IMG/VR virus record: IMGVR_UViG_2737471827_000006
Coordinates: 1-42,725 of that record
DNA from: a virus
Taxonomy: Duplodnaviria; Heunggongvirae; Uroviricota; Caudoviricetes
Strand: one strand, 5' to 3'
Length of the DNA stretch: 42,725 nucleotides
The notes beneath the pieces are model-generated. The model worked only from the letters and a program-made list of their open reading frames with translations. It was not told where the DNA came from and ran no database searches. This document shows positions 3,443-35,666 of the stretch, one piece after another. How positions within the stretch are numbered: position 1 is the stretch's first letter; every line of letters begins with the position of its first letter. The translations under genes and the position numbers were made by a program.

Positions 3443-3603
3443 ATCGCATTCAGATATTTGTTTTCATTCACTGATGGAAAAGAATTTCTCTTAAGTAATT
3501 CCTCTCTCGATGGCATTGGCTTTACGCGTTGGCGAATAATCATTTCTGCCGGAAGAATGCCGGGATTGTATGCAAGTCCTCTCATGGTAAATTCCTCAGT
3601 CAT
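3418..3603 (-). CDS. Small hypothetical protein (61 aa)
   Basis: Internal ATG of track ORF 3418..3735; ATG overlaps the stop of the upstream gene in an ATGACTGA arrangement. Confidence 0.35.
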
Positions 3604-3889
3604 TACTGATAGCGCCATAACGTGAGCGGTAATTACGCAGGCGCGGGTCAATTTCAGGGAAGTGGGTATATGTGGCTTTGCGGAATGGTCGGATTGATGT
3701 CTGGTAAATTCGCTCGCGTTCTTCTTTCTCTGCAAGCCATATACAGTGGCGAAATTCCTTTTCCTCTTTCGTTTCCTGCGGTAGAGACATTATCCGGTCG
3801 TAGTTTTTTCTGAATTTATCCAGCACCTCCGATACGGAATTGCCGGAACAGCGGCGCGCGTCATCCGCACCATACAGAGGCGCTGGCAT
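3596..3889 (-). CDS. Hypothetical early-left protein
   Basis: 97 aa ORF with ordinary composition in operon context. Confidence 0.5.
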
Positions 3890-3912
3890 AATGGGAGCCT
3901 TATTTTCAGTAA

Positions 3913-4500
3913 TCAGAAAGGAGGGTAATCGTTCTGGCTGTAACCATAATCATCTGCATGATTCTGGCTTACGTTTTTAGAGCGATTGTCTTTATCTTTG
4001 AGATTGGCAACCATGTTGGCGATAGTTTCTGGTTGCTTGCCTTCTGCCTTTTCTTTAAGGGTTTGACCTGTTTGTGCAATAAACGGGATGCGTATTTCCA
4101 TCTGGTAGCTGTCTGCGCCAGTCTTTTTGTTTGTGGTTAATACTTTCTGGAGCACTAACCCGATTTTCTTTCCATGAAATTCAGGTGCAACAAATTTACT
4201 GGCGGAAACCATATGTTGCGTTAATTGTCCAATCCCGGCACACCCCATCATGGCGTGGACGACATTTGCGCCAAATTTATTTTCCGTTCCGTCATTTTTC
4301 TGAACACAGACGCTAAGATATTGGATTTTACGTCCGTCGTCGGATTCGCCAGAAAACTCAATAAATTTGGCTCCTTTTTCTGATTGCTTTAGTTCTGCTT
4401 CAGTAATGGTAATGATATGAGCGCCAGTTTCGTTAATAAAACCACCTTGCCCTGCGGTCAGTGCTGCTTCTTCGTTATAAGTAAAAATCACGTTGCTCAT
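3913..4500 (-). CDS. Phage SSB-like protein (DUF669-like) partnered with Sak4
   Basis: 195 aa; acidic aromatic C-terminal tip (DDYGYSQNDYPPF) reminiscent of SSB tails; sits immediately downstream of a Sak4-type ATPase, a known pairing. Confidence 0.65.
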   Translation of the reverse strand: MSNVIFTYNEEAALTAGQGGFINETGAHIITITEAELKQSEKGAKFIEFSGESDDGRKIQYLSVCVQKNDGTENKFGANVVHAMMGCAGIGQLTQHMVSASKFVAPEFHGKKIGLVLQKVLTTNKKTGADSYQMEIRIPFIAQTGQTLKEKAEGKQPETIANMVANLKDKDNRSKNVSQNHADDYGYSQNDYPPF

Positions 4501-5177
4501 GCGGCGTTTTCCTTAATTTGATGAACATTATTGATGCCGTAGTAATCACAAACAGTGGCATCGACGAAAGAGAGATCGTTATCAATCTCATTGGAGTCAA
4601 ACATTCCCATTGGGGATTTAACAGTGTCTGCACCGTTGTTTTTTGTGGTGAAAAAGAACTGGTCATCACGGGTAAGGGTGCGAAGAACTATAGTAAACAT
4701 GCCTTCGACAGTGATTTTCTCGTCCAGCATTTTGCCGATAGTTTTCATTTTCACGCGCCCCATAGGGGTTTCTTCGGTGTGTGCAAGAAAATAGACTCTC
4801 AGGTCATCAGGTGCATCCTGTGCAGCCTTAATCACCTCCCATGCGTGGCGGCCTATCTCAGTAAATTTATCAAACGATTTTTCTTCTGAGCGGCGCATAA
4901 ACTCATTGCTCATCACATACTGGAAGTCATCAACAATAACGATTCTTTTCCCGTATTCGTGAGCACGCTTAATTACGGCAACTATTACGTCCCATTTGTC
5001 AGTGGTAACTACGGTTCCTTTTTTTGCTCTGGCATCCCATGCAAGCCAGTCTTTTGATTTAAATGGTAGCGGCTTGCCTATTGGTTTTATAAGTATTGCT
5101 TCCTCTGGATTGATATTTCTCATGCTGGTTGATTTTCCGGTGCCAGATTCACCGAGTATTAATGTCGCAGTTCCCAT
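4497..5177 (-). CDS. Sak4-like recombination ATPase (RecA-fold)
   Basis: 226 aa; Walker A GESGTGKST near the N-terminus and Walker B-like IVIVDDF; occupies the exo/bet position. Confidence 0.8.
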   Translation of the reverse strand: MGTATLILGESGTGKSTSMRNINPEEAILIKPIGKPLPFKSKDWLAWDARAKKGTVVTTDKWDVIVAVIKRAHEYGKRIVIVDDFQYVMSNEFMRRSEEKSFDKFTEIGRHAWEVIKAAQDAPDDLRVYFLAHTEETPMGRVKMKTIGKMLDEKITVEGMFTIVLRTLTRDDQFFFTTKNNGADTVKSPMGMFDSNEIDNDLSFVDATVCDYYGINNVHQIKENAA

Positions 5178-5185
5178 AATTTGCC

Positions 5186-5386
5186 TCAGAATGGTAATTC
5201 GGATGGGACGGAAAGAAATTCGCGCTCATTCATGCGCTCTCTTTGAGCCTGCCATAAACAAAGTTGTTTCTTTGATTTATCTCCCGCTTTACGCCAGTAA
5301 CGAGCCTCAGCAATGTGATATTCTCTTTTTAATCGACTTAATTCTGGAGTTTTCGCCAGTTCTACCGGAATCATTTTGACCTCCAT
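5186..5386 (-). CDS. Small hypothetical protein
   Basis: 66 aa ORF between kil and the Sak4 gene. Confidence 0.45.
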   Translation of the reverse strand: MEVKMIPVELAKTPELSRLKREYHIAEARYWRKAGDKSKKQLCLWQAQRERMNEREFLSVPSELPF

Positions 5387-5484
5387 TTTCTGTAGGCTTC
5401 GATGGCCTCACGAAACATCTTTTCATCGCCAATAAAAGTGGCGATAGTGAATTTAGTCTGGATAGCCATAAGTGTTTGATCCAT
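5371..5484 (-). CDS. kil: Kil-like protein
   Basis: 37 aa from internal ATG of track ORF 5371..5610; MDQTLMAIQTKFTIATFIGDEKMFREA matches my recollection of the lambda Kil N-terminus; AGGAG RBS 9-10 nt upstream. Confidence 0.6.
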   Translation of the reverse strand: MDQTLMAIQTKFTIATFIGDEKMFREAIEAYRKWRSK

Positions 5485-5617
5485 TTTTTGGGACTCCTGG
5501 CTGATTAAGTATGTCGATAAGGCGTTTCCATCCGTCACGTAATTTACGGGTGATTCGTTCAAGTAAAGATTCGGAAGGGCAGCCAGCAACAGGCCACCCT
5601 GCAATGGCATATTGCAT
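5453..5617 (-). CDS. cIII: CIII (FtsH inhibitor that stabilises CII)
   Basis: 54 aa from internal ATG; MQYAIAGWPVAGCPSESLLERITRKLRDGWKRLIDILNQPGVPKNGSNTYGYPD matches lambda CIII as I recall it; AAGGAG RBS 5 nt upstream. Confidence 0.85.
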   Translation of the reverse strand: MQYAIAGWPVAGCPSESLLERITRKLRDGWKRLIDILNQPGVPKNGSNTYGYPD

Positions 5618-5645
5618 GGTGTGCTCCTTATTTATACATAACGAA

Positions 5646-5670
5646 AAACGCCTCGAGTGAAGCGTTATTG
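5646..5670 (-). terminator. Putative intrinsic terminator (tL-like)
   Basis: Minus-strand hairpin AACGCTTC-ACTC-GAGGCGTT running into a T-tract; between the accessory gene and cIII. Confidence 0.45.
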
Positions 5671-5680
5671 GTATGCATAT

Positions 5681-5704
5681 AAAAAGGCCCTCACACTGGA
5701 GGGC
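5681..5704 (-). terminator. Putative intrinsic terminator (tL-like)
   Basis: Perfect 6-bp stem GCCCTC/GAGGGC with 6-nt loop, followed by TTTTT on the minus strand. Confidence 0.55.
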
Positions 5705-5808
5705 AAAGAAGATTTCCAATAATCAGAACAAGTCGGCTCCTGTTTAGTTACGAGCGACATTGCTCCGTGTATTCACTCGTTGGAATGAATACACAGTGCT
5801 TATTTGTA

Positions 5809-6279
5809 CTAATAAAATACCCAATTTTCTGTTTCTTGGTTGTGTCCAAAGTTATATTCAATATCTGGTGTTGATGTATCAATATTCTTCATCCCATCAA
5901 CAAGAGTTGATGCAACAGCCAAATCTTGTTTGATTCTCATTAAATGGTATTTCTTCCGGCGCAATAAACTTTCAATGGCAAGTGTCTTCGTTGGGAATGC
6001 AAAAGATCTTTCTGCATTTTTTGCTACTTTCTTAATTGCATATCTATTTCTCTTTTGTTTCCATTCCTGTAACCACTGATTTGGTGCTGGTTTAAAATTA
6101 ACAATCCAATGCGCAGGAACCAACCATGCATAATGCTCTGTCTGATGAAAAGCTATATATTGAAGTGCGAATATTTTGATTCCATCTTCTTCAACTGTCG
6201 CCTGGAATCTCCAGAAAACAGGCATTCCATCATGTTCAGTTTCTGATTCAGGAAAAGGTACACTCCATGATTTTGTCAT
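5809..6279 (-). CDS. Hypothetical accessory protein at the sieB/ral/ea10 position
   Basis: 156 aa ORF directly downstream of N; visibly AT-richer than flanking lambda-like genes; no recognisable family. Confidence 0.65.
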   Translation of the reverse strand: MTKSWSVPFPESETEHDGMPVFWRFQATVEEDGIKIFALQYIAFHQTEHYAWLVPAHWIVNFKPAPNQWLQEWKQKRNRYAIKKVAKNAERSFAFPTKTLAIESLLRRKKYHLMRIKQDLAVASTLVDGMKNIDTSTPDIEYNFGHNQETENWVFY

Positions 6280-6287
6280 ATCTCACC

Positions 6288-6614
6288 TCAAATAAGTGGT
6301 TTGCTGCCTAATTTCATTTTCTGGCGACCAACACAAGTCACACCCATTTCACTGCGTGGCTTGCTGTACCATGTGCGCTGATTCTTGCGCTCAATACGTT
6401 GCAGGTTGCTTTCAATCTGTTCGTGGTATTCAGCCAGCACCGTAAGGTCTATCGGATTCAGTGCGCTTTCTACTCGTGATTTCGGTTTGCGATTCAGCGA
6501 GAGAATAGGGCGGTTAACTGGCTTTGCGCTTACCCCAACCAACAGGGGATTTGCTGCTTTCCATTGAGCCTGTTTCTCTGCGCGACGTTCGCGGCGGCGT
6601 GTTTGTGCATCCAT
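6288..6614 (-). CDS. N: Antitermination protein N
   Basis: 108 aa; arginine-rich N-terminus MDAQTRRRERRAEKQAQWKAANPLLVGVSAKPVNRPILSLNRKPKSRVESALNPIDLTVLAEYH closely matches lambda N as I recall it; AGGAGA RBS. Confidence 0.95.
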   Translation of the reverse strand: MDAQTRRRERRAEKQAQWKAANPLLVGVSAKPVNRPILSLNRKPKSRVESALNPIDLTVLAEYHEQIESNLQRIERKNQRTWYSKPRSEMGVTCVGRQKMKLGSKPLI

Positions 6615-6812
6615 CTGGATTCTCCTGTCAGTTAGCTTTGGTGATTGGATGGCCGGCGCTGAACCCCGGCTTACTGGTTAGAGCGCCCGCACTACCAGTG
6701 ACGCTGTCTTGAGGCGCAGATTGGTTACTGCTTGCCATGAGCGCTGTTTATACATTGGTCGAGCATCAGCCTGCTCATTCATCCAATCCCAAAGCCTTCT
6801 GCTTTGAATGCT

Positions 6813-6842
6813 GCCCTTCTTCAGGGCTTAATTTTTAAGAGC
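6813..6842 (-). promoter_or_regulatory. nutL (boxA plus boxB hairpin)
   Basis: Minus-strand reading GGCTCTTAA-AAATTAA-GCCCTGAAGAAGGGC; boxB is a perfect GCCCT/AGGGC hairpin as in lambda nutL; boxA differs from lambda CGCTCTTAA at one position. Confidence 0.85.
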
Positions 6843-6875
6843 CTCACCTTCATGGTGGTCAGTGCGTCCTGCTGA

Positions 6876-6911
6876 TGGGTAAACTTTATCGAAATGATAA
6901 ATTAATGGCAA
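6876..6911 (-). promoter_or_regulatory. pL-like promoter
   Basis: Minus strand: -35 TTGCCA, 17-nt spacer, -10 TAAAGT, then a leader beginning ATCAGCAGGACGCACTGACCACCATGAAGGTGA that matches the lambda pL transcript start as I recall it. Confidence 0.6.
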
Positions 6912-7147: not shown

Positions 7148-7333
7148 TTACAGAGCAAAGAGATCATGCATTAGGTTGCTGTTCATCTGGTGGTTGAATT
7201 GATACGGCTCCAATTCCTTCTTGATCTCGTTCAGGTGTTGTTCCGCTTTTTTTGCCAGATCGTGACCTTCTTGGATCTGGCTTTCCAACATCTTGTTGAG
7301 AATTTCCATCTCCGGTTGCAGATTCTTCGGCAT
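7148..7333 (-). CDS. Possible small overlapping ORF (61 aa) in an alternative frame of the protease gene 3' end
   Basis: Internal ATG of track ORF 7148..7423 preceded by GAGGA about 9 nt upstream; non-low-complexity helical-looking sequence, whereas the protease-frame tail here is low complexity. Confidence 0.3.
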   Translation of the reverse strand: MPKNLQPEMEILNKMLESQIQEGHDLAKKAEQHLNEIKKELEPYQFNHQMNSNLMHDLFAL

Positions 7334-8165
7334 TAGCTTTTTCCTCTTTTTGTAGATACGTTGTACAATCAATAACCCTCGGCTTTCCAAATGTTGGAAT
7401 GTCACCATTATGAATTTTGTCACAGAAAAGATTATAGAGTATTTCTGTTATACCTTTAGGATGCTCAACACACTTGAAAAGTTCCTTGGCTTCTTTTCTG
7501 TCGATAACAAATCCATGTGAAGGATATGAGGCTATTAGTTTGCCTAACGCCCCTTCTTTTAGGCTGCTTGGTTTGTCTGCTAATCGTTGGCCATAAGTGA
7601 TAGCTATACTCATTGCGCGCTGATGTTCACCAAGCTTTATTGGATCTATCTGTGCGGCCATAGGTGCTATCAACGCTTCTGTAAGTCTGGTCGCGATATC
7701 AGCAGACATTTTGGTACTTATCTGATTTTCGTATCTTATCTTAACAAGGTGTGAGTTAAACGCTGAAATAGAGCGTTCCTTTAGAGCATCAAGAGCTGTC
7801 ATGATAGCTAAACCAGAACTCATCTCACCTATTTCATCGTTTTTTTTCAGTTGGATATCTAATGGCCCAAGCTCCCCCATGTCACCAATAACAAGTTTAT
7901 TGGCTGCTATAGCTATTAGTGTACCAGCACTTTTGCATGGTCCAACAACTAAAAGTGTTACCGTTTCATAATGGTGCTGTAGAGCTCTACCTATACGATA
8001 ACCTGCATTTGGATCACCGCCATAAGTAGCAACACAGAAGATAACATTCTCTTTTAATCCATGTTGTGACTTACGTTTCTTGATTTCATTGGTGAGATCA
8101 AGATAACCATCACGATGAATATCGCCTGTATACACATAAACATCATGATTTTCAATAGAATTCAT
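7164..8165 (-). CDS. ClpP-fold / SDH-family-like serine protease at the rexAB position
   Basis: 333 aa; region VIFCVATYGGDPNAGYRIGRALQHHYETVTLLVVGPCKSAGTLIAIAANKLVIGDMGELGPLD resembles ClpP/SppA/SDH peptidases with a G-x-x-x-S-x-G nucleophile elbow (Ser79); charged low-complexity C-terminal tail; AGGGAG RBS; AT-rich. Confidence 0.7.
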   Translation of the reverse strand: MNSIENHDVYVYTGDIHRDGYLDLTNEIKKRKSQHGLKENVIFCVATYGGDPNAGYRIGRALQHHYETVTLLVVGPCKSAGTLIAIAANKLVIGDMGELGPLDIQLKKNDEIGEMSSGLAIMTALDALKERSISAFNSHLVKIRYENQISTKMSADIATRLTEALIAPMAAQIDPIKLGEHQRAMSIAITYGQRLADKPSSLKEGALGKLIASYPSHGFVIDRKEAKELFKCVEHPKGITEILYNLFCDKIHNGDIPTFGKPRVIDCTTYLQKEEKANAEESATGDGNSQQDVGKPDPRRSRSGKKSGTTPERDQEGIGAVSIQPPDEQQPNA

Positions 8166-8331: not shown

Positions 8332-9036
8332 TCACGAATTTTTCAGCCACTCCCTTGCCTCGATGTCATCCAGATGGCGAGATTGCTTCAGAATACCAGC
8401 CACATACTCCACCTTTGCTACTTGATGATAAGGCAACGTTATTGGCCTGTGGTCCTGGTTAATGCTTGTAAATTGGTATTCTCCATCTCTGTCATAGCCA
8501 AGAACCTTAATCATGTTGTGTCCTTCAACGGTTCTGACAAACACCTCATCACCCGGGAATACTTTGGTGTTAGGCTCAATGAGTACATATTCTCCTGATT
8601 TTATTCTGGGCCACATGCTGTCTCCTTTCACACGAAGACCAAAGGCATCTGGATCATCGCTATAAATTTTGAGCCACCCATCGCGCTCTTCGGTCATCTC
8701 GATGGCACCATCAACACCAAGAATTGCCTCACCAACCACGCGCACTAACCCTTTTCTTACCTGACCTACAAAAGTTAAAGAATCTGAGCATGATGCAATT
8801 GGTGTTACATCATGTACCAAATCAAGCCACCCATTAGGTAACCCAAGTGCAGCTTCAAATTTTCTTGCTAGTTTATCCCCTATGTTTCGAGTGCTTTTTT
8901 CACCGGAGACTTGCGTGAGTTGAGAAGGGCTAACCCCAAGCTTATCGGCAAAGCTTGCATTAGTGTTACCCGCGATTTTTTTATGCTCATCTAGCAAAAA
9001 CGCCAGATTCGATTTGCGAATATCTTTGTTTTCCAT
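8332..9036 (-). CDS. cI: CI-type prophage repressor (HTH plus S24 LexA-like autopeptidase)
   Basis: 234 aa; N-terminal HTH (NASFADKLGVSPSQLTQV); C-terminal S24 domain with GDSM serine motif; divergent from cro across an operator-rich intergenic region. Confidence 0.9.
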   Translation of the reverse strand: MENKDIRKSNLAFLLDEHKKIAGNTNASFADKLGVSPSQLTQVSGEKSTRNIGDKLARKFEAALGLPNGWLDLVHDVTPIASCSDSLTFVGQVRKGLVRVVGEAILGVDGAIEMTEERDGWLKIYSDDPDAFGLRVKGDSMWPRIKSGEYVLIEPNTKVFPGDEVFVRTVEGHNMIKVLGYDRDGEYQFTSINQDHRPITLPYHQVAKVEYVAGILKQSRHLDDIEAREWLKNS

Positions 9037-31382: not shown

Positions 31383-33360
31383 AACTATTAAAGATTTCCT
31401 CGTCTCGCTTGGCTTCAGTGTGGATGAGGCAGGAGCGAAAAAGTTCGGTTCTGTCCTCTCCGGTACAACTGCAAATGTCATCAAAATGGGGCTGTCTGTT
31501 GAAGGAGCTGCACTGTCCGTGGTGGCCTTCACGGCTAAGATCGCCTCCGGCCTGGATAATCTTTACTGGGCGTCACAGCGCACCGGCGCGACAGTCCAGG
31601 GAATTCAGTCTATTGGCTATGCGGTTTCGCAGGTTGGCGGCAGCGTGGACGCGGCGCGAACCTCTCTGGAAAGCCTCTCCCGGTTTATTCGTAACAATCC
31701 CGGTGCAGAAGGCTTTCTGAATCGCCTGGGCGTACAGACCCGTGACGCCAGCGGCAACATGCGCGACATGGCCGCTATCTTTACGGGTGTCGGACAGAAG
31801 CTCAGCAGCATGCCGTATTACCGGGCTAACCAGTATGCGCAGATGCTTGGCATTGACGAAAATACCCTCATGGCGATGCGCCGGGGTGTGGGTGATTTCT
31901 CCGGGCAGTACAGCGCAATGGCGAAAGCTATCGGCTTCAATGCTGACGAGGCGGCCAGAAGCTCCAACAAATTTATGACCTCCCTGCGTGAGTTTGGCGC
32001 GATGGCAGGCATGGCCCGTGACAAAATCGGCTCTAATCTTGCGGGTGGGCTTGCGGGTTCGCTGGACACTCTGCGCCGCCATATCCTGGACAACTTCCCG
32101 CGCATCGAGCAGACCCTGACGAAAGCCATAAAAGGCATTCTGGCGCTCGGGGATATTATCGGGCGGCTGTTCTTCAGACTGATTGAAGGAACATCAGGCC
32201 TCATCACCTGGTGGCAATCGCTGGATAAGCAAACGCGGGAGCTCATCTCGCTGTTTGGCGCGCTGACGATTGCGCTGCGCATTCTGAACAGTACGTTCTG
32301 GATGTCGCCGATTGGCCTCATTAGCGCGCTGGCGGCGGGGATTGCCCTTCTGTGGGAGGACTATCAGACCTGGAAGGAAGGCGGCGACAGCCTGATTGAC
32401 TGGGGCAAGTGGAAGCCGGAGGTCGATGCCGCGCTGAAGATGGTTCGTGACCTGAAATGGTCTGTTAATGAACTGGCGAAAGCGCTGGCGAAACTGCTCA
32501 ATATTGACCCCAAATCATGGTCCCTGAAGTGGGATTTCAGCAACTTCATCGACCAGATGGGCGAATTCAGCAAAATGCTGAACATGATCGCCGACCTGCT
32601 CAACGCTATCAAAGATGGCCGCTGGGCTGATGCCGTCAGCATCGGCAAACAGATACTTAATCAGGGCAGCGAAAATCCGTCAGCGATGCCGATGGTTACA
32701 GACAGCGCTAACAGTACTGCCGACTGGATTAAAGAGCACTGGGGATTTGATCCCCGCAGTGTGGGCCGGACGGTACGCGGCTGGTTTGGTGATGATGAGC
32801 CGGAACAACATGCACAGGCTACGAAACGAGGAGAACGGAATAACAATCCGGGAAACCTTAATTTTGCTGGTCAGGCAGGGGCTTCTCTTGAACGCCCGGG
32901 CGGGCGATTTGCCAGATTTGAAACTGCCTTTGATGGATTACGGGCTCTTGCTCGTCAGTTAATGCTGTACGCCGGACGGGGAATAAACAGTGTGGAGAAA
33001 ATTATCTCTACCTGGGCACCTGCGTCTGATAATAACAACACAACTGCGTATATCAGGGCTGTATCGCAACGACTGGGAGTGGATCCCCGGGCTGCCCTGA
33101 ATATGAGCGATCCGCAAACCATGTCAGCATTGATGAGCAGCATTATCCAGCATGAGAATGGAAGAAATATCTATTCTCGAGAGCTGATTAATAAGGCTGC
33201 CGTGGCGGGAATTAGTGGCAAAATGACAGAGGTTAACCAGCAAAATACTTACCACATTTACGGTGGCGGAGATCCGCACGCTGTCGGTAATGAGGTTGCA
33301 CGTCGGCAACAGTCTGCAAATGCTCAGGTCATGCGAAGTAATCAGGTGAGGGTGGGTTAG
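31372..33360 (+). CDS. Tail tape measure protein
   Basis: 662 aa from ATG at 31372 (GAGAGAGG RBS); Ala/Gly-rich helical repeats and predicted TM-like segment. Confidence 0.85.
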   Translation: MNAETIKDFLVSLGFSVDEAGAKKFGSVLSGTTANVIKMGLSVEGAALSVVAFTAKIASGLDNLYWASQRTGATVQGIQSIGYAVSQVGGSVDAARTSLESLSRFIRNNPGAEGFLNRLGVQTRDASGNMRDMAAIFTGVGQKLSSMPYYRANQYAQMLGIDENTLMAMRRGVGDFSGQYSAMAKAIGFNADEAARSSNKFMTSLREFGAMAGMARDKIGSNLAGGLAGSLDTLRRHILDNFPRIEQTLTKAIKGILALGDIIGRLFFRLIEGTSGLITWWQSLDKQTRELISLFGALTIALRILNSTFWMSPIGLISALAAGIALLWEDYQTWKEGGDSLIDWGKWKPEVDAALKMVRDLKWSVNELAKALAKLLNIDPKSWSLKWDFSNFIDQMGEFSKMLNMIADLLNAIKDGRWADAVSIGKQILNQGSENPSAMPMVTDSANSTADWIKEHWGFDPRSVGRTVRGWFGDDEPEQHAQATKRGERNNNPGNLNFAGQAGASLERPGGRFARFETAFDGLRALARQLMLYAGRGINSVEKIISTWAPASDNNNTTAYIRAVSQRLGVDPRAALNMSDPQTMSALMSSIIQHENGRNIYSRELINKAAVAGISGKMTEVNQQNTYHIYGGGDPHAVGNEVARRQQSANAQVMRSNQVRVG

Positions 33361-33947
33361 TGGATATTCTCTCTACACTTTTTCATCAGCAGAGCAGAAA
33401 AATAGGAATGATTGTTCCCAGTGTTGTTATTTCAGAGAAGCATACAGATATGCTTGAAATAACAGAGCATCCGGTAGAGGTTGGGGCCGCTGTCGCTGAT
33501 CATGCCTATAAAAAACCGTCAGAAGTGGTGATGGAGGTTGGTTTCGCCGGTGGCGGCGCATTGCTGGATTTTGCCAGTAATCTGACGGCTACCAGCCTGC
33601 TCGGCCTGAGTCCTCAGCAGACGTATCAGGAGCTACTGGATCTGCAGGAAAGCCGTATCCCCTTCGATGTGGTAACCGGTAAACGGCTGTACAGCAACAT
33701 GTTGATCCGGGCGCTGGAAGTGACGACGGACAAGACAACCGAAAACGTCCTGTCCGCCGTCCTCACCCTGAGGGAGGTCATTATCTCCCGGACACAGCAG
33801 ATTACCGTCGCGGATAAAACCAACATGAAGGAAGGGGCCAGCACGTCGGCGGTACAGAACAGCGGCAACAAAACCACAAAGCCTCCAGATACTTCACTGC
33901 TGAAAAGCATCACTGGTAACGTGGCGTCATTACTGGGAGGCGGCTAA
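33360..33947 (+). CDS. Hypothetical tail/baseplate protein
   Basis: 195 aa; GTG start overlapping the TMP stop. Confidence 0.45.
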   Translation: MDILSTLFHQQSRKIGMIVPSVVISEKHTDMLEITEHPVEVGAAVADHAYKKPSEVVMEVGFAGGGALLDFASNLTATSLLGLSPQQTYQELLDLQESRIPFDVVTGKRLYSNMLIRALEVTTDKTTENVLSAVLTLREVIISRTQQITVADKTNMKEGASTSAVQNSGNKTTKPPDTSLLKSITGNVASLLGGG

Positions 33948-34249
33948 TGATAATTCAGGAAATTCCGCTGACAGCGGACAACCAGCAGTTCAGCATCGTC
34001 CTGGGTGGTGTCACTTGGCAGATTAGCATCATATGGCGCGATCTTTACTGGATTATGGACCTGCAGAACGACAGAGGGGAGCCGGTAATCTCCGGTATTC
34101 CTCTCGTCACTGGCGCTGATCTGCTGGCGCAGTACGCCTGTATGGGGCTTGGTTTTAAGCTGGTGGTGGTCTGCGATGACAACACACAGGATTATCCCTC
34201 GAAAACTGATCTGGGTGGCCGCAGTCATTTACTGGTATCAACGGAGTAA
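33947..34249 (+). CDS. Hypothetical tail/baseplate protein
   Basis: 100 aa; ATGA coupling. Confidence 0.45.
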   Translation: MIIQEIPLTADNQQFSIVLGGVTWQISIIWRDLYWIMDLQNDRGEPVISGIPLVTGADLLAQYACMGLGFKLVVVCDDNTQDYPSKTDLGGRSHLLVSTE

Positions 34250-34251
34250 GC

Positions 34252-35316
34252 ATGTCACAGAACTGGATGAGACATTTCGAGCTGCAGCTTGTGGACGGGA
34301 ACGGTCAGGGAATTGAGCTAAGTGATTTCAAAGTCACCTTTACGATCGACTGGTTCAACATCAGCAGCGCGTCCCGGGTAGGGACTATCAAAATTTATAA
34401 CCTTTCGGCAGATACTGTGAACCGAATTACCGGGCAGGAGTTTTCGAAAGTGCGGCTGATTGCCGGTTACGACGGTATCGCGCCGGAGGTGGCGGCAAGC
34501 GACGTCGGGACCGTGCGCGAAGTCGACGCGGCAGATGTGGGCCAGAGTGATGGCCGCAATTACGGGCTGATTTTCAGCGGAGAAATTCGCTACTCGGTCA
34601 CAGGAAAAGACAGCCCTATTGATTCCTATGTCCTGATTCAGGCAGCAGATACGGATCTGGCATTTGCCACCAGTATAACCTCACAGACGCTGGCTGCCGG
34701 TTACACGGTCGCAGATGTGAACCGTGCGCTGATGAAAGACTTTGAGGCCAAAGGCGCGGCCGAAGGACTGACGCCTGAAATGCCTGCTACCGTATACCCT
34801 CGAGGGCGGGTGCTGTTCGGCATGACACGGCATCTTATGGATAACGTGGCCGGACAATGTGGCGCAACATGGCAATTTGTGGACGGTCAGCGACAGATGG
34901 TGGCGAATAACGAGTATGTTCACGACGCGATTGTGCTCAACAGCGCCACCGGGCTTATCGGCATGCCGCAGCAGACTATCGGTAACGGCGTAAACGTCCG
35001 CGCTCTTATTAATCCGAACATCCGGGTTAACGGGCTTATTCAGCTGGATCAGGCTTCCGTGTACCGCACCGCGCTGTCGAACAATGATATCGCGAAGGCT
35101 GGTGGGAAGATCACCGACCAGAACACGGACGGAAATATCACGCTAAGCGGCACCACAGCACAACCTGCCAGCATCGCAACGGATGGCGTTTATATTGTGC
35201 GCGGGATTATGTACACTGGCGATACAAGGGGCCAGGCGTGGTACATGGATATGATGTGCGAAGCGCGTGGCGCGCAGGATATGCCATCGAGTACAGCATT
35301 GCAGAGGGGGTTATAG
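34252..35316 (+). CDS. Putative baseplate hub-like protein
   Basis: 354 aa between TMP-proximal genes and baseplate V; assignment by position. Confidence 0.45.
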   Translation: MSQNWMRHFELQLVDGNGQGIELSDFKVTFTIDWFNISSASRVGTIKIYNLSADTVNRITGQEFSKVRLIAGYDGIAPEVAASDVGTVREVDAADVGQSDGRNYGLIFSGEIRYSVTGKDSPIDSYVLIQAADTDLAFATSITSQTLAAGYTVADVNRALMKDFEAKGAAEGLTPEMPATVYPRGRVLFGMTRHLMDNVAGQCGATWQFVDGQRQMVANNEYVHDAIVLNSATGLIGMPQQTIGNGVNVRALINPNIRVNGLIQLDQASVYRTALSNNDIAKAGGKITDQNTDGNITLSGTTAQPASIATDGVYIVRGIMYTGDTRGQAWYMDMMCEARGAQDMPSSTALQRGL

Positions 35317-35318
35317 AA

Positions 35319-35666
35319 ATGAAACGATGGATTTTTTCATTGCTGGCGTTAGCGTCTGTTGGCGCAAGTGCAAACACCATAACGATGCAATGTGGTAACT
35401 TTCGTATGGACGCAATCCCTGACTCATTGTTTAAAATCAATGGCGAAACCGTAACATCCCAAAAAGTTAAGATGCTGGGCAAAGACGGTACAGGCATGCA
35501 GATCAAAATGGGACTGATGCCTGCTAAAGATGGCAACAACTATGGGTTTGAGTATATCCATCGTCCGGGTACCGAAACGCGTTTCCTGAACGTCCAGCTT
35601 CTGCAGAACAGCATGGATGCACCGAAAATCATCGGATCTTTCCCGTGTAAAAAGGTTGATGGTTAA
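35319..35666 (+). CDS. Small secreted protein with signal peptide (accessory gene)
   Basis: 115 aa from ATG at 35319 (GAGGGGG RBS); N-terminus MKRWIFSLLALASVGASA is a classic Sec signal with AxA cleavage site; two Cys in the mature part. Confidence 0.6.
   Translation: MKRWIFSLLALASVGASANTITMQCGNFRMDAIPDSLFKINGETVTSQKVKMLGKDGTGMQIKMGLMPAKDGNNYGFEYIHRPGTETRFLNVQLLQNSMDAPKIIGSFPCKKVDG

Follow-up and report, generated by a model that had tools for sequence, protein, structure and literature searches.

The window analyzed here is a 42,725-nucleotide (nt) stretch of DNA from a phage of the class Caudoviricetes (positions 1 to 42,725 of IMG/VR record IMGVR_UViG_2737471827_000006), and between its genes N and cIII it carries an AT-rich open reading frame (ORF) of 156 codons. 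Its sequence identifies the gene not as a new element but as that of the long-catalogued, never characterized HK97 gp45/933W L0079 protein. We tentatively favor, with less than even confidence, the reading that the product is an early, soluble, nonenzymatic accessory protein that interferes with a host barrier and that represents a positional, and probably functional, alternative to the lambda gene ral. This reading is favored because of the immediate-early placement of the gene, its residence in a ral-type hypervariable slot, the mutual exclusion with ral, the cassette-like base composition, and its dispensability. New in this study are the wider protein family, a confident structural model without a significant match in the PDB, the ral-exclusive behavior of the slot, the identities of the terminators, and a fossil N tail in related phages.

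Gene identity and coding evidence

The ORF is a real gene and was correctly described by the original prediction, an earlier note made from the sequence alone, which had placed an ORF of 156 amino acids (aa) between N and cIII; it occupies positions 5809 to 6279 on the minus strand and starts with ATG. By chance alone, an open frame of 156 codons would be expected with a probability of about 4e-6 per frame at the base composition of the ORF. Comparisons with homologues of 58 to 64% identity revealed 79 to 95 differences at third codon positions versus 32 to 52 at positions 1 and 2, and this excess at third positions shows that purifying selection acts on the frame. None of the antisense ORFs inside the gene is conserved among the homologues, and a sieB-like antisense gene within the ORF was rejected for that reason. 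The predicted AT-richness relative to the lambda-like neighbors was recovered by sliding-window analysis: the guanine-plus-cytosine (GC) content of the ORF is 0.359, whereas N has 0.50, cIII/kil has 0.44, and the window as a whole has 0.487. The GC content of the ORF falls into the lowest 0.5% of all 471-bp windows (0.26 at third codon positions), and in each of the four contexts compared, including those of phage Bas81, Pectobacterium, and Brenneria, the flanks are less AT-rich than the gene.

The statement that the ORF belongs to no recognizable family holds for Pfam and NCBIfam, in which scans of the protein found no match, and for PADLOC-DB 2.0 (5027 models; 0 families at E <= 1), but not for PHROG, since the protein matches PHROG 1636 ("unknown function") over residues 1 to 156 of 156 (E = 1.9e-110). 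According to tblastn, the identity over 156 residues is 97.4% to HK97 Gp45, 98.1% to 933W L0079, and 98.7% to an unannotated ORF of H-19B. The named equivalents, i.e., HK97 Gp45 (AAF31125), 933W L0079 (AAD25424), phi24B vb_24B_11c (ADN68407), and Min27 ORF20, are all 97 to 98% identical, and the identical protein is deposited as WP_047672383.1. The HK97 and 933W records (AF069529 and AF125520) already list the gene with no function assigned. Its DNA was found in 598 of 5426 complete Escherichia coli genomes and in 86 phage records. In three protein clusters (798, 639, and 60 sequences), all members whose names were read are designated "hypothetical protein," "Uncharacterized protein," or "Prophage protein," and full-text literature searches under the known names of the gene, anti-defense, and restriction alleviation retrieved no paper on it.

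A profile search of 1.84 billion cluster representatives extended the family to 88 homologues at E <= 1e-3, mostly of 130 to 160 aa, which comprise 22 close and about 66 distant members; two of the matches (P0059 and P0082) are repetitive proteins that look spurious. A reverse tblastn search from one distant homologue recovered HK97 gp45. Pfam scans of 78 superfamily members with strict and lenient thresholds revealed no recurrent family, and a THUMP match (E = 0.08) among them was regarded as noise. Sequence searches of the PDB with both family profiles returned only coiled-coil noise. No informative domain fusion emerged from a profile search of 5.8 billion proteins, from which one 200-aa PF00119 protein (half coverage, on a 1.1-kb contig) was left out.

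A swap slot behind N

The behavior of the locus was examined in two overlapping sets, i.e., 80 IMG/VR loci with near-identical gp45 copies (gp45-anchored) and 80 loci anchored on cIII (L095 to L174; L094, positions 4721 to 4972, was also surveyed). In lambda, the N-to-cIII interval contains sieB, ral, and ea10, as the original prediction had stated, and additionally orf28. Among the 80 cIII-anchored loci, ral (PF11058) was present in 33, a gp45-type gene in 15, and sieB in 9. The other occupants upstream of ea10 or cIII include a P22 gp17-like gene (PF17420) and members of PHROGs 12139 (a protein of 293 aa), 3054 (149 aa, with hydrophobic stretches), 2471, 1273, and 6949, most slot occupants being functionally unassigned. 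In the Sakai prophage Sp5, the same slot is held by the PHROG 2471 gene ECs_1180. The interval from N to ea10/cIII of E. coli lambdoid prophages is a swap slot and a hotspot of diversity. Gp45-type genes and ral never occurred together, neither in the 80 gp45-anchored loci nor in the 15 gp45-bearing cIII-anchored ones (Fisher P = 2e-4, uncorrected for relatedness), and a tblastn search with lambda SieB found no match in the 80 gp45-bearing loci.

The flanks of the gene are variable as well. In the gp45-anchored loci, it is preceded by arginine-rich N-like ORFs of at least six kinds, two of which were recognized by tblastn and the rest by eye, and the downstream genes range from ea10 and cIII to the P22 gp17-like gene, a 322-aa ORF, and others. 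Relatives in other phages are located in early or replication-side operons. Homologues of 58 to 63% identity in Pectobacterium and Brenneria prophages reside at the far end of the early operon, where they adjoin xis-int, and a homologue of 63% identity opens an operon with ParB-like and RusA-like genes in the E. coli phage Bas81, a sewage isolate. The distant members from metagenomic phage contigs and from phages of Pantoea, Vibrio, and Pseudomonas are found among early or replication-side genes, often as the last gene ahead of a convergent lysis or late block; in two cases, a DNA cytosine methyltransferase is encoded no more than about 3 kb away. Some metagenomic contigs with relatives encode a polymerase and have no integrase in the stretch examined. 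The neighbors differ in every context examined, and none of them represents a conserved partner gene.

Expression from pL

Scanning of the minus strand from pL/nutL to the end of the ORF revealed no intrinsic terminator, the first one being tL2a, and the only minus-strand terminators between pL and cIII are located behind the ORF. N and the ORF are therefore expected to share the first transcript, which would be about 1.2 kb long and independent of N. A crude scan of the minus strand detected no sigma-70-like promoter between N and the ORF, and we infer that pL is the sole promoter of the gene, which would be read along with N even before N acts. A strong ribosome-binding site precedes the ORF and overlaps the N stop codon. 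Given its orientation along with pL, its distance of only 8 nt from N, and the lack of a separate promoter, the gene is expected to be silent in a repressed lysogen.

Predicted structure and conserved surface

The protein has acidic ends and a very basic core, with 14 lysine and arginine versus 3 aspartate and glutamate residues at positions 75 to 120 (pI 11.1). Its sequence is that of a soluble protein, as the maximal Kyte-Doolittle value of 0.56 (19-residue window) leaves no hydrophobic or transmembrane segment. AlphaFold2 with an alignment of 78 sequences predicted a single domain with a mean predicted local distance difference test score (pLDDT) of 96.3 and a predicted template modeling score (pTM) of 0.83; this run superseded a poor one on the 22 close homologues (pLDDT 60). 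The model consists of three long antiparallel strands (residues 19 to 55), two short helices, a short strand (83 to 86), a 33-residue helix (98 to 130), and an ordered C-terminal tail. A fold search of the PDB with the model of pLDDT 96 returned no significant match. The corresponding search of BFVD identified 14 uncharacterized phage proteins at E <= 1e-3, with matches from phages of Erwinia, Tenacibaculum, Achromobacter, Rhizobium, Sinorhizobium, Delftia, and Cellulophaga.

Over the 66 distant members, conservation falls mostly on hydrophobic or small residues, apart from Y/W23-R/K24, G33, E/Q46-T47, K83, K87, R91/92, A101, R108-K109, and Q/H112, and no catalytic motif was recognizable among the conserved positions. 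A strand-helix motif, R-x-A-F-x-T-K-x-x-A, may be reminiscent of AP2 or integrase arm-binding domains. The combination of a conserved basic patch with the lack of a recognizable catalytic motif therefore suggests a binder of a negatively charged partner.

Weighing the proposed role

In the scenario that we favor, the ORF would be a functional early gene of the pL operon with a soluble product, carried by a mobile accessory cassette of the HK97 gp45/933W L0079 family that fills the hypervariable slot just after N instead of the lambda sieB-orf28-ral block. The protein would be coproduced with N on the earliest transcript and act as a stoichiometric binder rather than as an enzyme. Within its compact fold of a beta-sheet plus a long helix, the conserved basic residues R24, K83, K87, R91, R108, and K109, beside the E/Q46-T47 motif, might form the binding surface. 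The target would be polyanionic and could be a nucleic acid, a nucleotide-derived signal, or an acidic protein surface. By binding it, the protein would neutralize some barrier or process of the host just as lytic growth begins. N-independent expression, the basic patch as the functional surface, and host defense as the target are all inferred. The original prediction had deduced an anti-defense or exclusion role from the location; its positional argument stands, given a swap slot in which the gene never accompanies ral. The anti-defense half is a reasonable guess, and the exclusion half is disfavored for the reasons given below.

Several points weigh against a counter-defense or host-interference role. 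It is a best guess from location only, i.e., guilt by location, and neither the sequence nor the fold resembles known defense or anti-defense proteins, nor was a publication found that links the gene to them. The exclusion of ral may reflect allelic replacement between the same flanking homologies, and the loci are phylogenetically nonindependent. Classic DNA-mimic anti-restriction proteins are acidic, whereas the gp45-type protein is basic. The terminator scan covers intrinsic sites, and Rho-dependent termination inside the ORF is beyond its reach. Finally, the adjacency to xis-int in Pectobacterium and Brenneria and the operon-end placement elsewhere fit a role in DNA metabolism or regulation equally well.

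A more far-reaching version of the favored reading is possible, yet on the unlikely side: the gp45/L0079 family might be the founding member of a structurally new and widespread class of phage immune evasion proteins that act as immediate-early, nonenzymatic binders. Such a protein could be, e.g., a new anti-restriction factor or a sponge or blocker of a nucleic acid- or nucleotide-based defense, which would substitute for ral in lambdoid and Shiga toxin phages. The class would be shared across phages of many Proteobacteria and, judged by fold, of Bacteroidota.

The strongest rival, which we nevertheless consider unlikely, is a nucleic acid-binding accessory factor that serves the phage itself in DNA metabolism or gene regulation, e.g., in replication, recombination, or the early-to-late transition. 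The basic region of beta-hairpin and helix (residues 75 to 120, pI 11) is kept across the superfamily, and the family is found in phages of Escherichia, Pantoea, Vibrio, and Pseudomonas by sequence and of Erwinia, Rhizobium, Delftia, Tenacibaculum, and Cellulophaga by fold; so wide a range of hosts suggests a target common to all of them, such as DNA or RNA. The gene also closes the replication or early operon of several phages, near a RecE-like exonuclease, DNA polymerase, SNF2 helicase, or methyltransferase, and its location beside xis-int in Pectobacterium and Brenneria also fits such a function. However, the gene is dispensable at the family level, as lambda, Sakai Sp5, and most of the cIII-anchored loci lack it, and neither a DNA- or RNA-binding Pfam match (lenient thresholds, 78 members) nor a conserved partner gene was found. 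Furthermore, an AT-rich cassette in a slot that elsewhere holds ral and the gp17-like gene points to an interaction with the host.

Quite unlikely is a host takeover or toxic protein that is directed against RNA polymerase, the ribosome, cell division, or the nucleoid and is unlinked to immunity. The immediate-early placement beside N and upstream of kil agrees with this proposal, as does the broad host range of the family, which implies a conserved target, but about 11% of the complete E. coli genomes carry the gene without obvious decay, even if it is probably repressed there. A sieB-like superinfection exclusion or prophage-expressed defense gene that protects the lysogen, as suggested by the location in the lambda sieB interval, the AT-rich, moron-like composition with a terminator directly downstream, and the abundance in E. 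coli prophages, is very unlikely, because the position on the pL strand behind N without a promoter-like site of its own predicts repression in the lysogen, the terminator is part of the conserved LPR1/tL2a element outside the cassette, a membrane segment and a PADLOC match are missing, and phages of several other genera carry relatives, both close and distant, some of them on polymerase-encoding contigs with no integrase in the examined stretch.

Locus anatomy and neighboring genes

The mosaic boundaries were determined by BLAST against lambda, 933W, and HK97 (Table 1). N and the nutL/pL region are 94 to 99% identical to lambda, and window positions 6313 to 6643 correspond to lambda N in the BLAST comparison. 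The segment with lambda ea10/ssb (lambda 33523 to 33922) is precisely absent, as lambda position 33522 is joined to 33923 at window positions 5676|5677; in 933W and phi24B, ea10 is retained between the gp45-type gene and cIII. Two tandem terminator hairpins before cIII, as had been predicted, are indeed present on the minus strand (5704 to 5687 and 5666 to 5647), and tL2a and the cIII-proximal hairpin are adjacent because ea10 is missing. The position of the second hairpin is presumably that of tL2b. Judged by their correspondence to lambda, the two hairpins are separate lambda elements, and neither is part of the cassette. The 3' untranslated region (UTR) of the ORF is highly structured (z = -5.05), with a perfect 12-bp hairpin directly past the stop codon. 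According to a preprint from 2024, this ral-ea10 intergenic region of lambda encodes the Hfq-binding small RNA (sRNA) LPR1/PreS, whose 3' end is tL2a; the sRNA is Hfq dependent and was reported to upregulate dnaN (10.1101/2024.10.31.621285).

Table 1. Features of the pL operon around the HK97 gp45-type gene in the window
Feature	Positions	Strand	Remarks
nutL and pL start region	6788..6877	minus	boxB GCCCTGAAGAAGGGC at 6813-6827; 98.9% identical to lambda 35494-35583; promoter and antitermination site for the ORF
Lambda-type N gene	6288..6614	minus	last ~18 codons (to 6341) within the block common to 933W and HK97
Overlap of N stop TGA (6288-6290) and GAGGTGA Shine-Dalgarno sequence	6280..6290	minus	8-nt spacer, TGA-GGTGAGAT-ATG
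Mosaic block without lambda counterpart	5800..6312	minus	replaces lambda 34046-35061 (ral, orf28, sieB, N 3' end)
HK97 gp45-type coding sequence	5809..6279	minus	ATG start, 156 aa, 18.5 kDa, pI 8.8; PHROG 1636
3' UTR of the ORF	5677..5799	minus	123 bp; matches the ral-ea10 intergenic region of lambda (33923-34045) at 97.6% identity
First terminator hairpin	5687..5704	minus	GCCCTC-CAGTGT-GAGGGC plus T run; corresponds to lambda tL2a, LPR1 3' end
Second terminator hairpin	5647..5666	minus	corresponds to lambda 33493-33512, just upstream of cIII
kil, cIII, and cIII leader	5382-5676	minus	corresponds to lambda 33228-33522
cIII thermoregulator RNA element	5572..5630	minus	Rfam RF01804, 88.5 bits, E = 1e-21; intact, start of cIII
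cIII	5453-5617	minus	after the two terminators

The block common to 933W and HK97 extends from position 5677 (5637 for HK97) to 6341 inside the 3' end of N. Both phages carry an H-19B-type N, which is followed by a noncoding 58-nt spacer before gp45 (L001, 5081 to 5138; L002, 4943 to 5000) with the 54 nt that correspond to window positions 6288 to 6341. This spacer still spells the tail of a lambda-type N, ending in TCVGRQKMKLGSKPLI and a stop, and in comparison with 933W and HK97 the tail is in frame with N only in the window. The arrangement in the window therefore looks like the native context of the cassette, which suggests that the cassette spread from a lambda-type N background.

Further accessory genes are located in the vicinity. 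A 333-aa ORF between cI (8332 to 9036) and pL (7164 to 8165, minus strand) at the position of rexAB has its own terminator (7135 to 7114) and weakly matches ClpP-like SDH serine proteases (PF01972, E = 4e-7, below the curated cutoff; NF047768, E = 3e-9); it is a candidate prophage-expressed accessory or defense gene without a PADLOC match. The recombination module (3596 to 5177, minus strand) is not lambda Red and comprises an AAA_24 (Sak4-like) ATPase (4497 to 5177), a 195-aa ORF without a family match (3913 to 4500), and the P22-type anti-RecBCD protein Abc2 (PF11043, E = 6e-63; 3596 to 3889). Directly past kil, at the lambda gam position, a 66-aa ORF (5186 to 5386, minus strand) had no match in Pfam or NCBIfam.

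Significance

The gene is present in HK97, H-19B, 933W, phi24B, many other Shiga toxin-converting phages, and about one-ninth of the complete E. coli genomes, and its product is probably one of the earliest proteins to be synthesized once the phage infects or is induced. Should the counter-defense role be true, the family would represent a new fold class of counter-defense proteins and could help to explain which E. coli strains are entered and lysogenized by Shiga toxin phages. An accessory function in DNA or RNA binding would supply a missing piece of the early program in lambdoid model phages. Nothing about the sequence is out of the ordinary, and it is catalogued; the value of the gene is that of a well-defined candidate with a confident structural model in medically relevant phages.

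Comparison with known systems

The closest counterparts are the loci of HK97, 933W, and phi24B, in which the gp45-type gene directly follows N and precedes the same LPR1/tL2a region as in the window. The window differs from 933W and HK97 in the lambda-type N upstream, which reads in frame into the tail of about 18 codons, and from 933W and phi24B in the absence of ea10/ssb after the gene. The ORF does not correspond to Ea10/Ssb of lambda: the ea10 segment is absent from the window, and ea10 is a separate gene downstream of the gp45-type gene in 933W and phi24B.

Lambda Ral (PF11058, PHROG 1055), which alleviates type I restriction, is likewise a dispensable early accessory protein encoded in the same pL slot upstream of LPR1/tL2a. 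Its profile did not match the ORF at E <= 10 and recognized a genuine Ral from a sister locus at E = 2.3e-47. Ral is a cysteine-rich protein of 66 aa, whereas the 156-aa gp45-type protein is predicted to adopt a beta-sheet-plus-long-helix fold, and ral is located past the sieB region of lambda, whereas the gp45-type gene abuts N. Lambda SieB shares the N-proximal interval but is annotated on the opposite strand in the lambda record; unlike sieB, the gp45-type ORF lies on the pL strand, encodes no hydrophobic segment, and has neither a promoter of its own nor a significant Pfam match. The P22 gp17-like protein (PF17420, PHROG 1510) is the product of another small accessory gene of the same slot with an unrelated sequence. 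Its gene is found directly downstream of the gp45-type gene in 10 of the 80 gp45-anchored loci and thus co-occurs with it rather than replacing it. Compared with a moron, the cassette has the deviant base composition but not the promoter and terminator of its own, the terminator being located in the segment shared with lambda. The immediate-early anti-restriction protein Ocr (gp0.3) of phage T7 is a highly acidic DNA mimic. The gp45-type protein with its basic core has no similarity to Ocr in sequence or fold, but it may resemble Ocr in its mode of action as an early, small, nonenzymatic binder.
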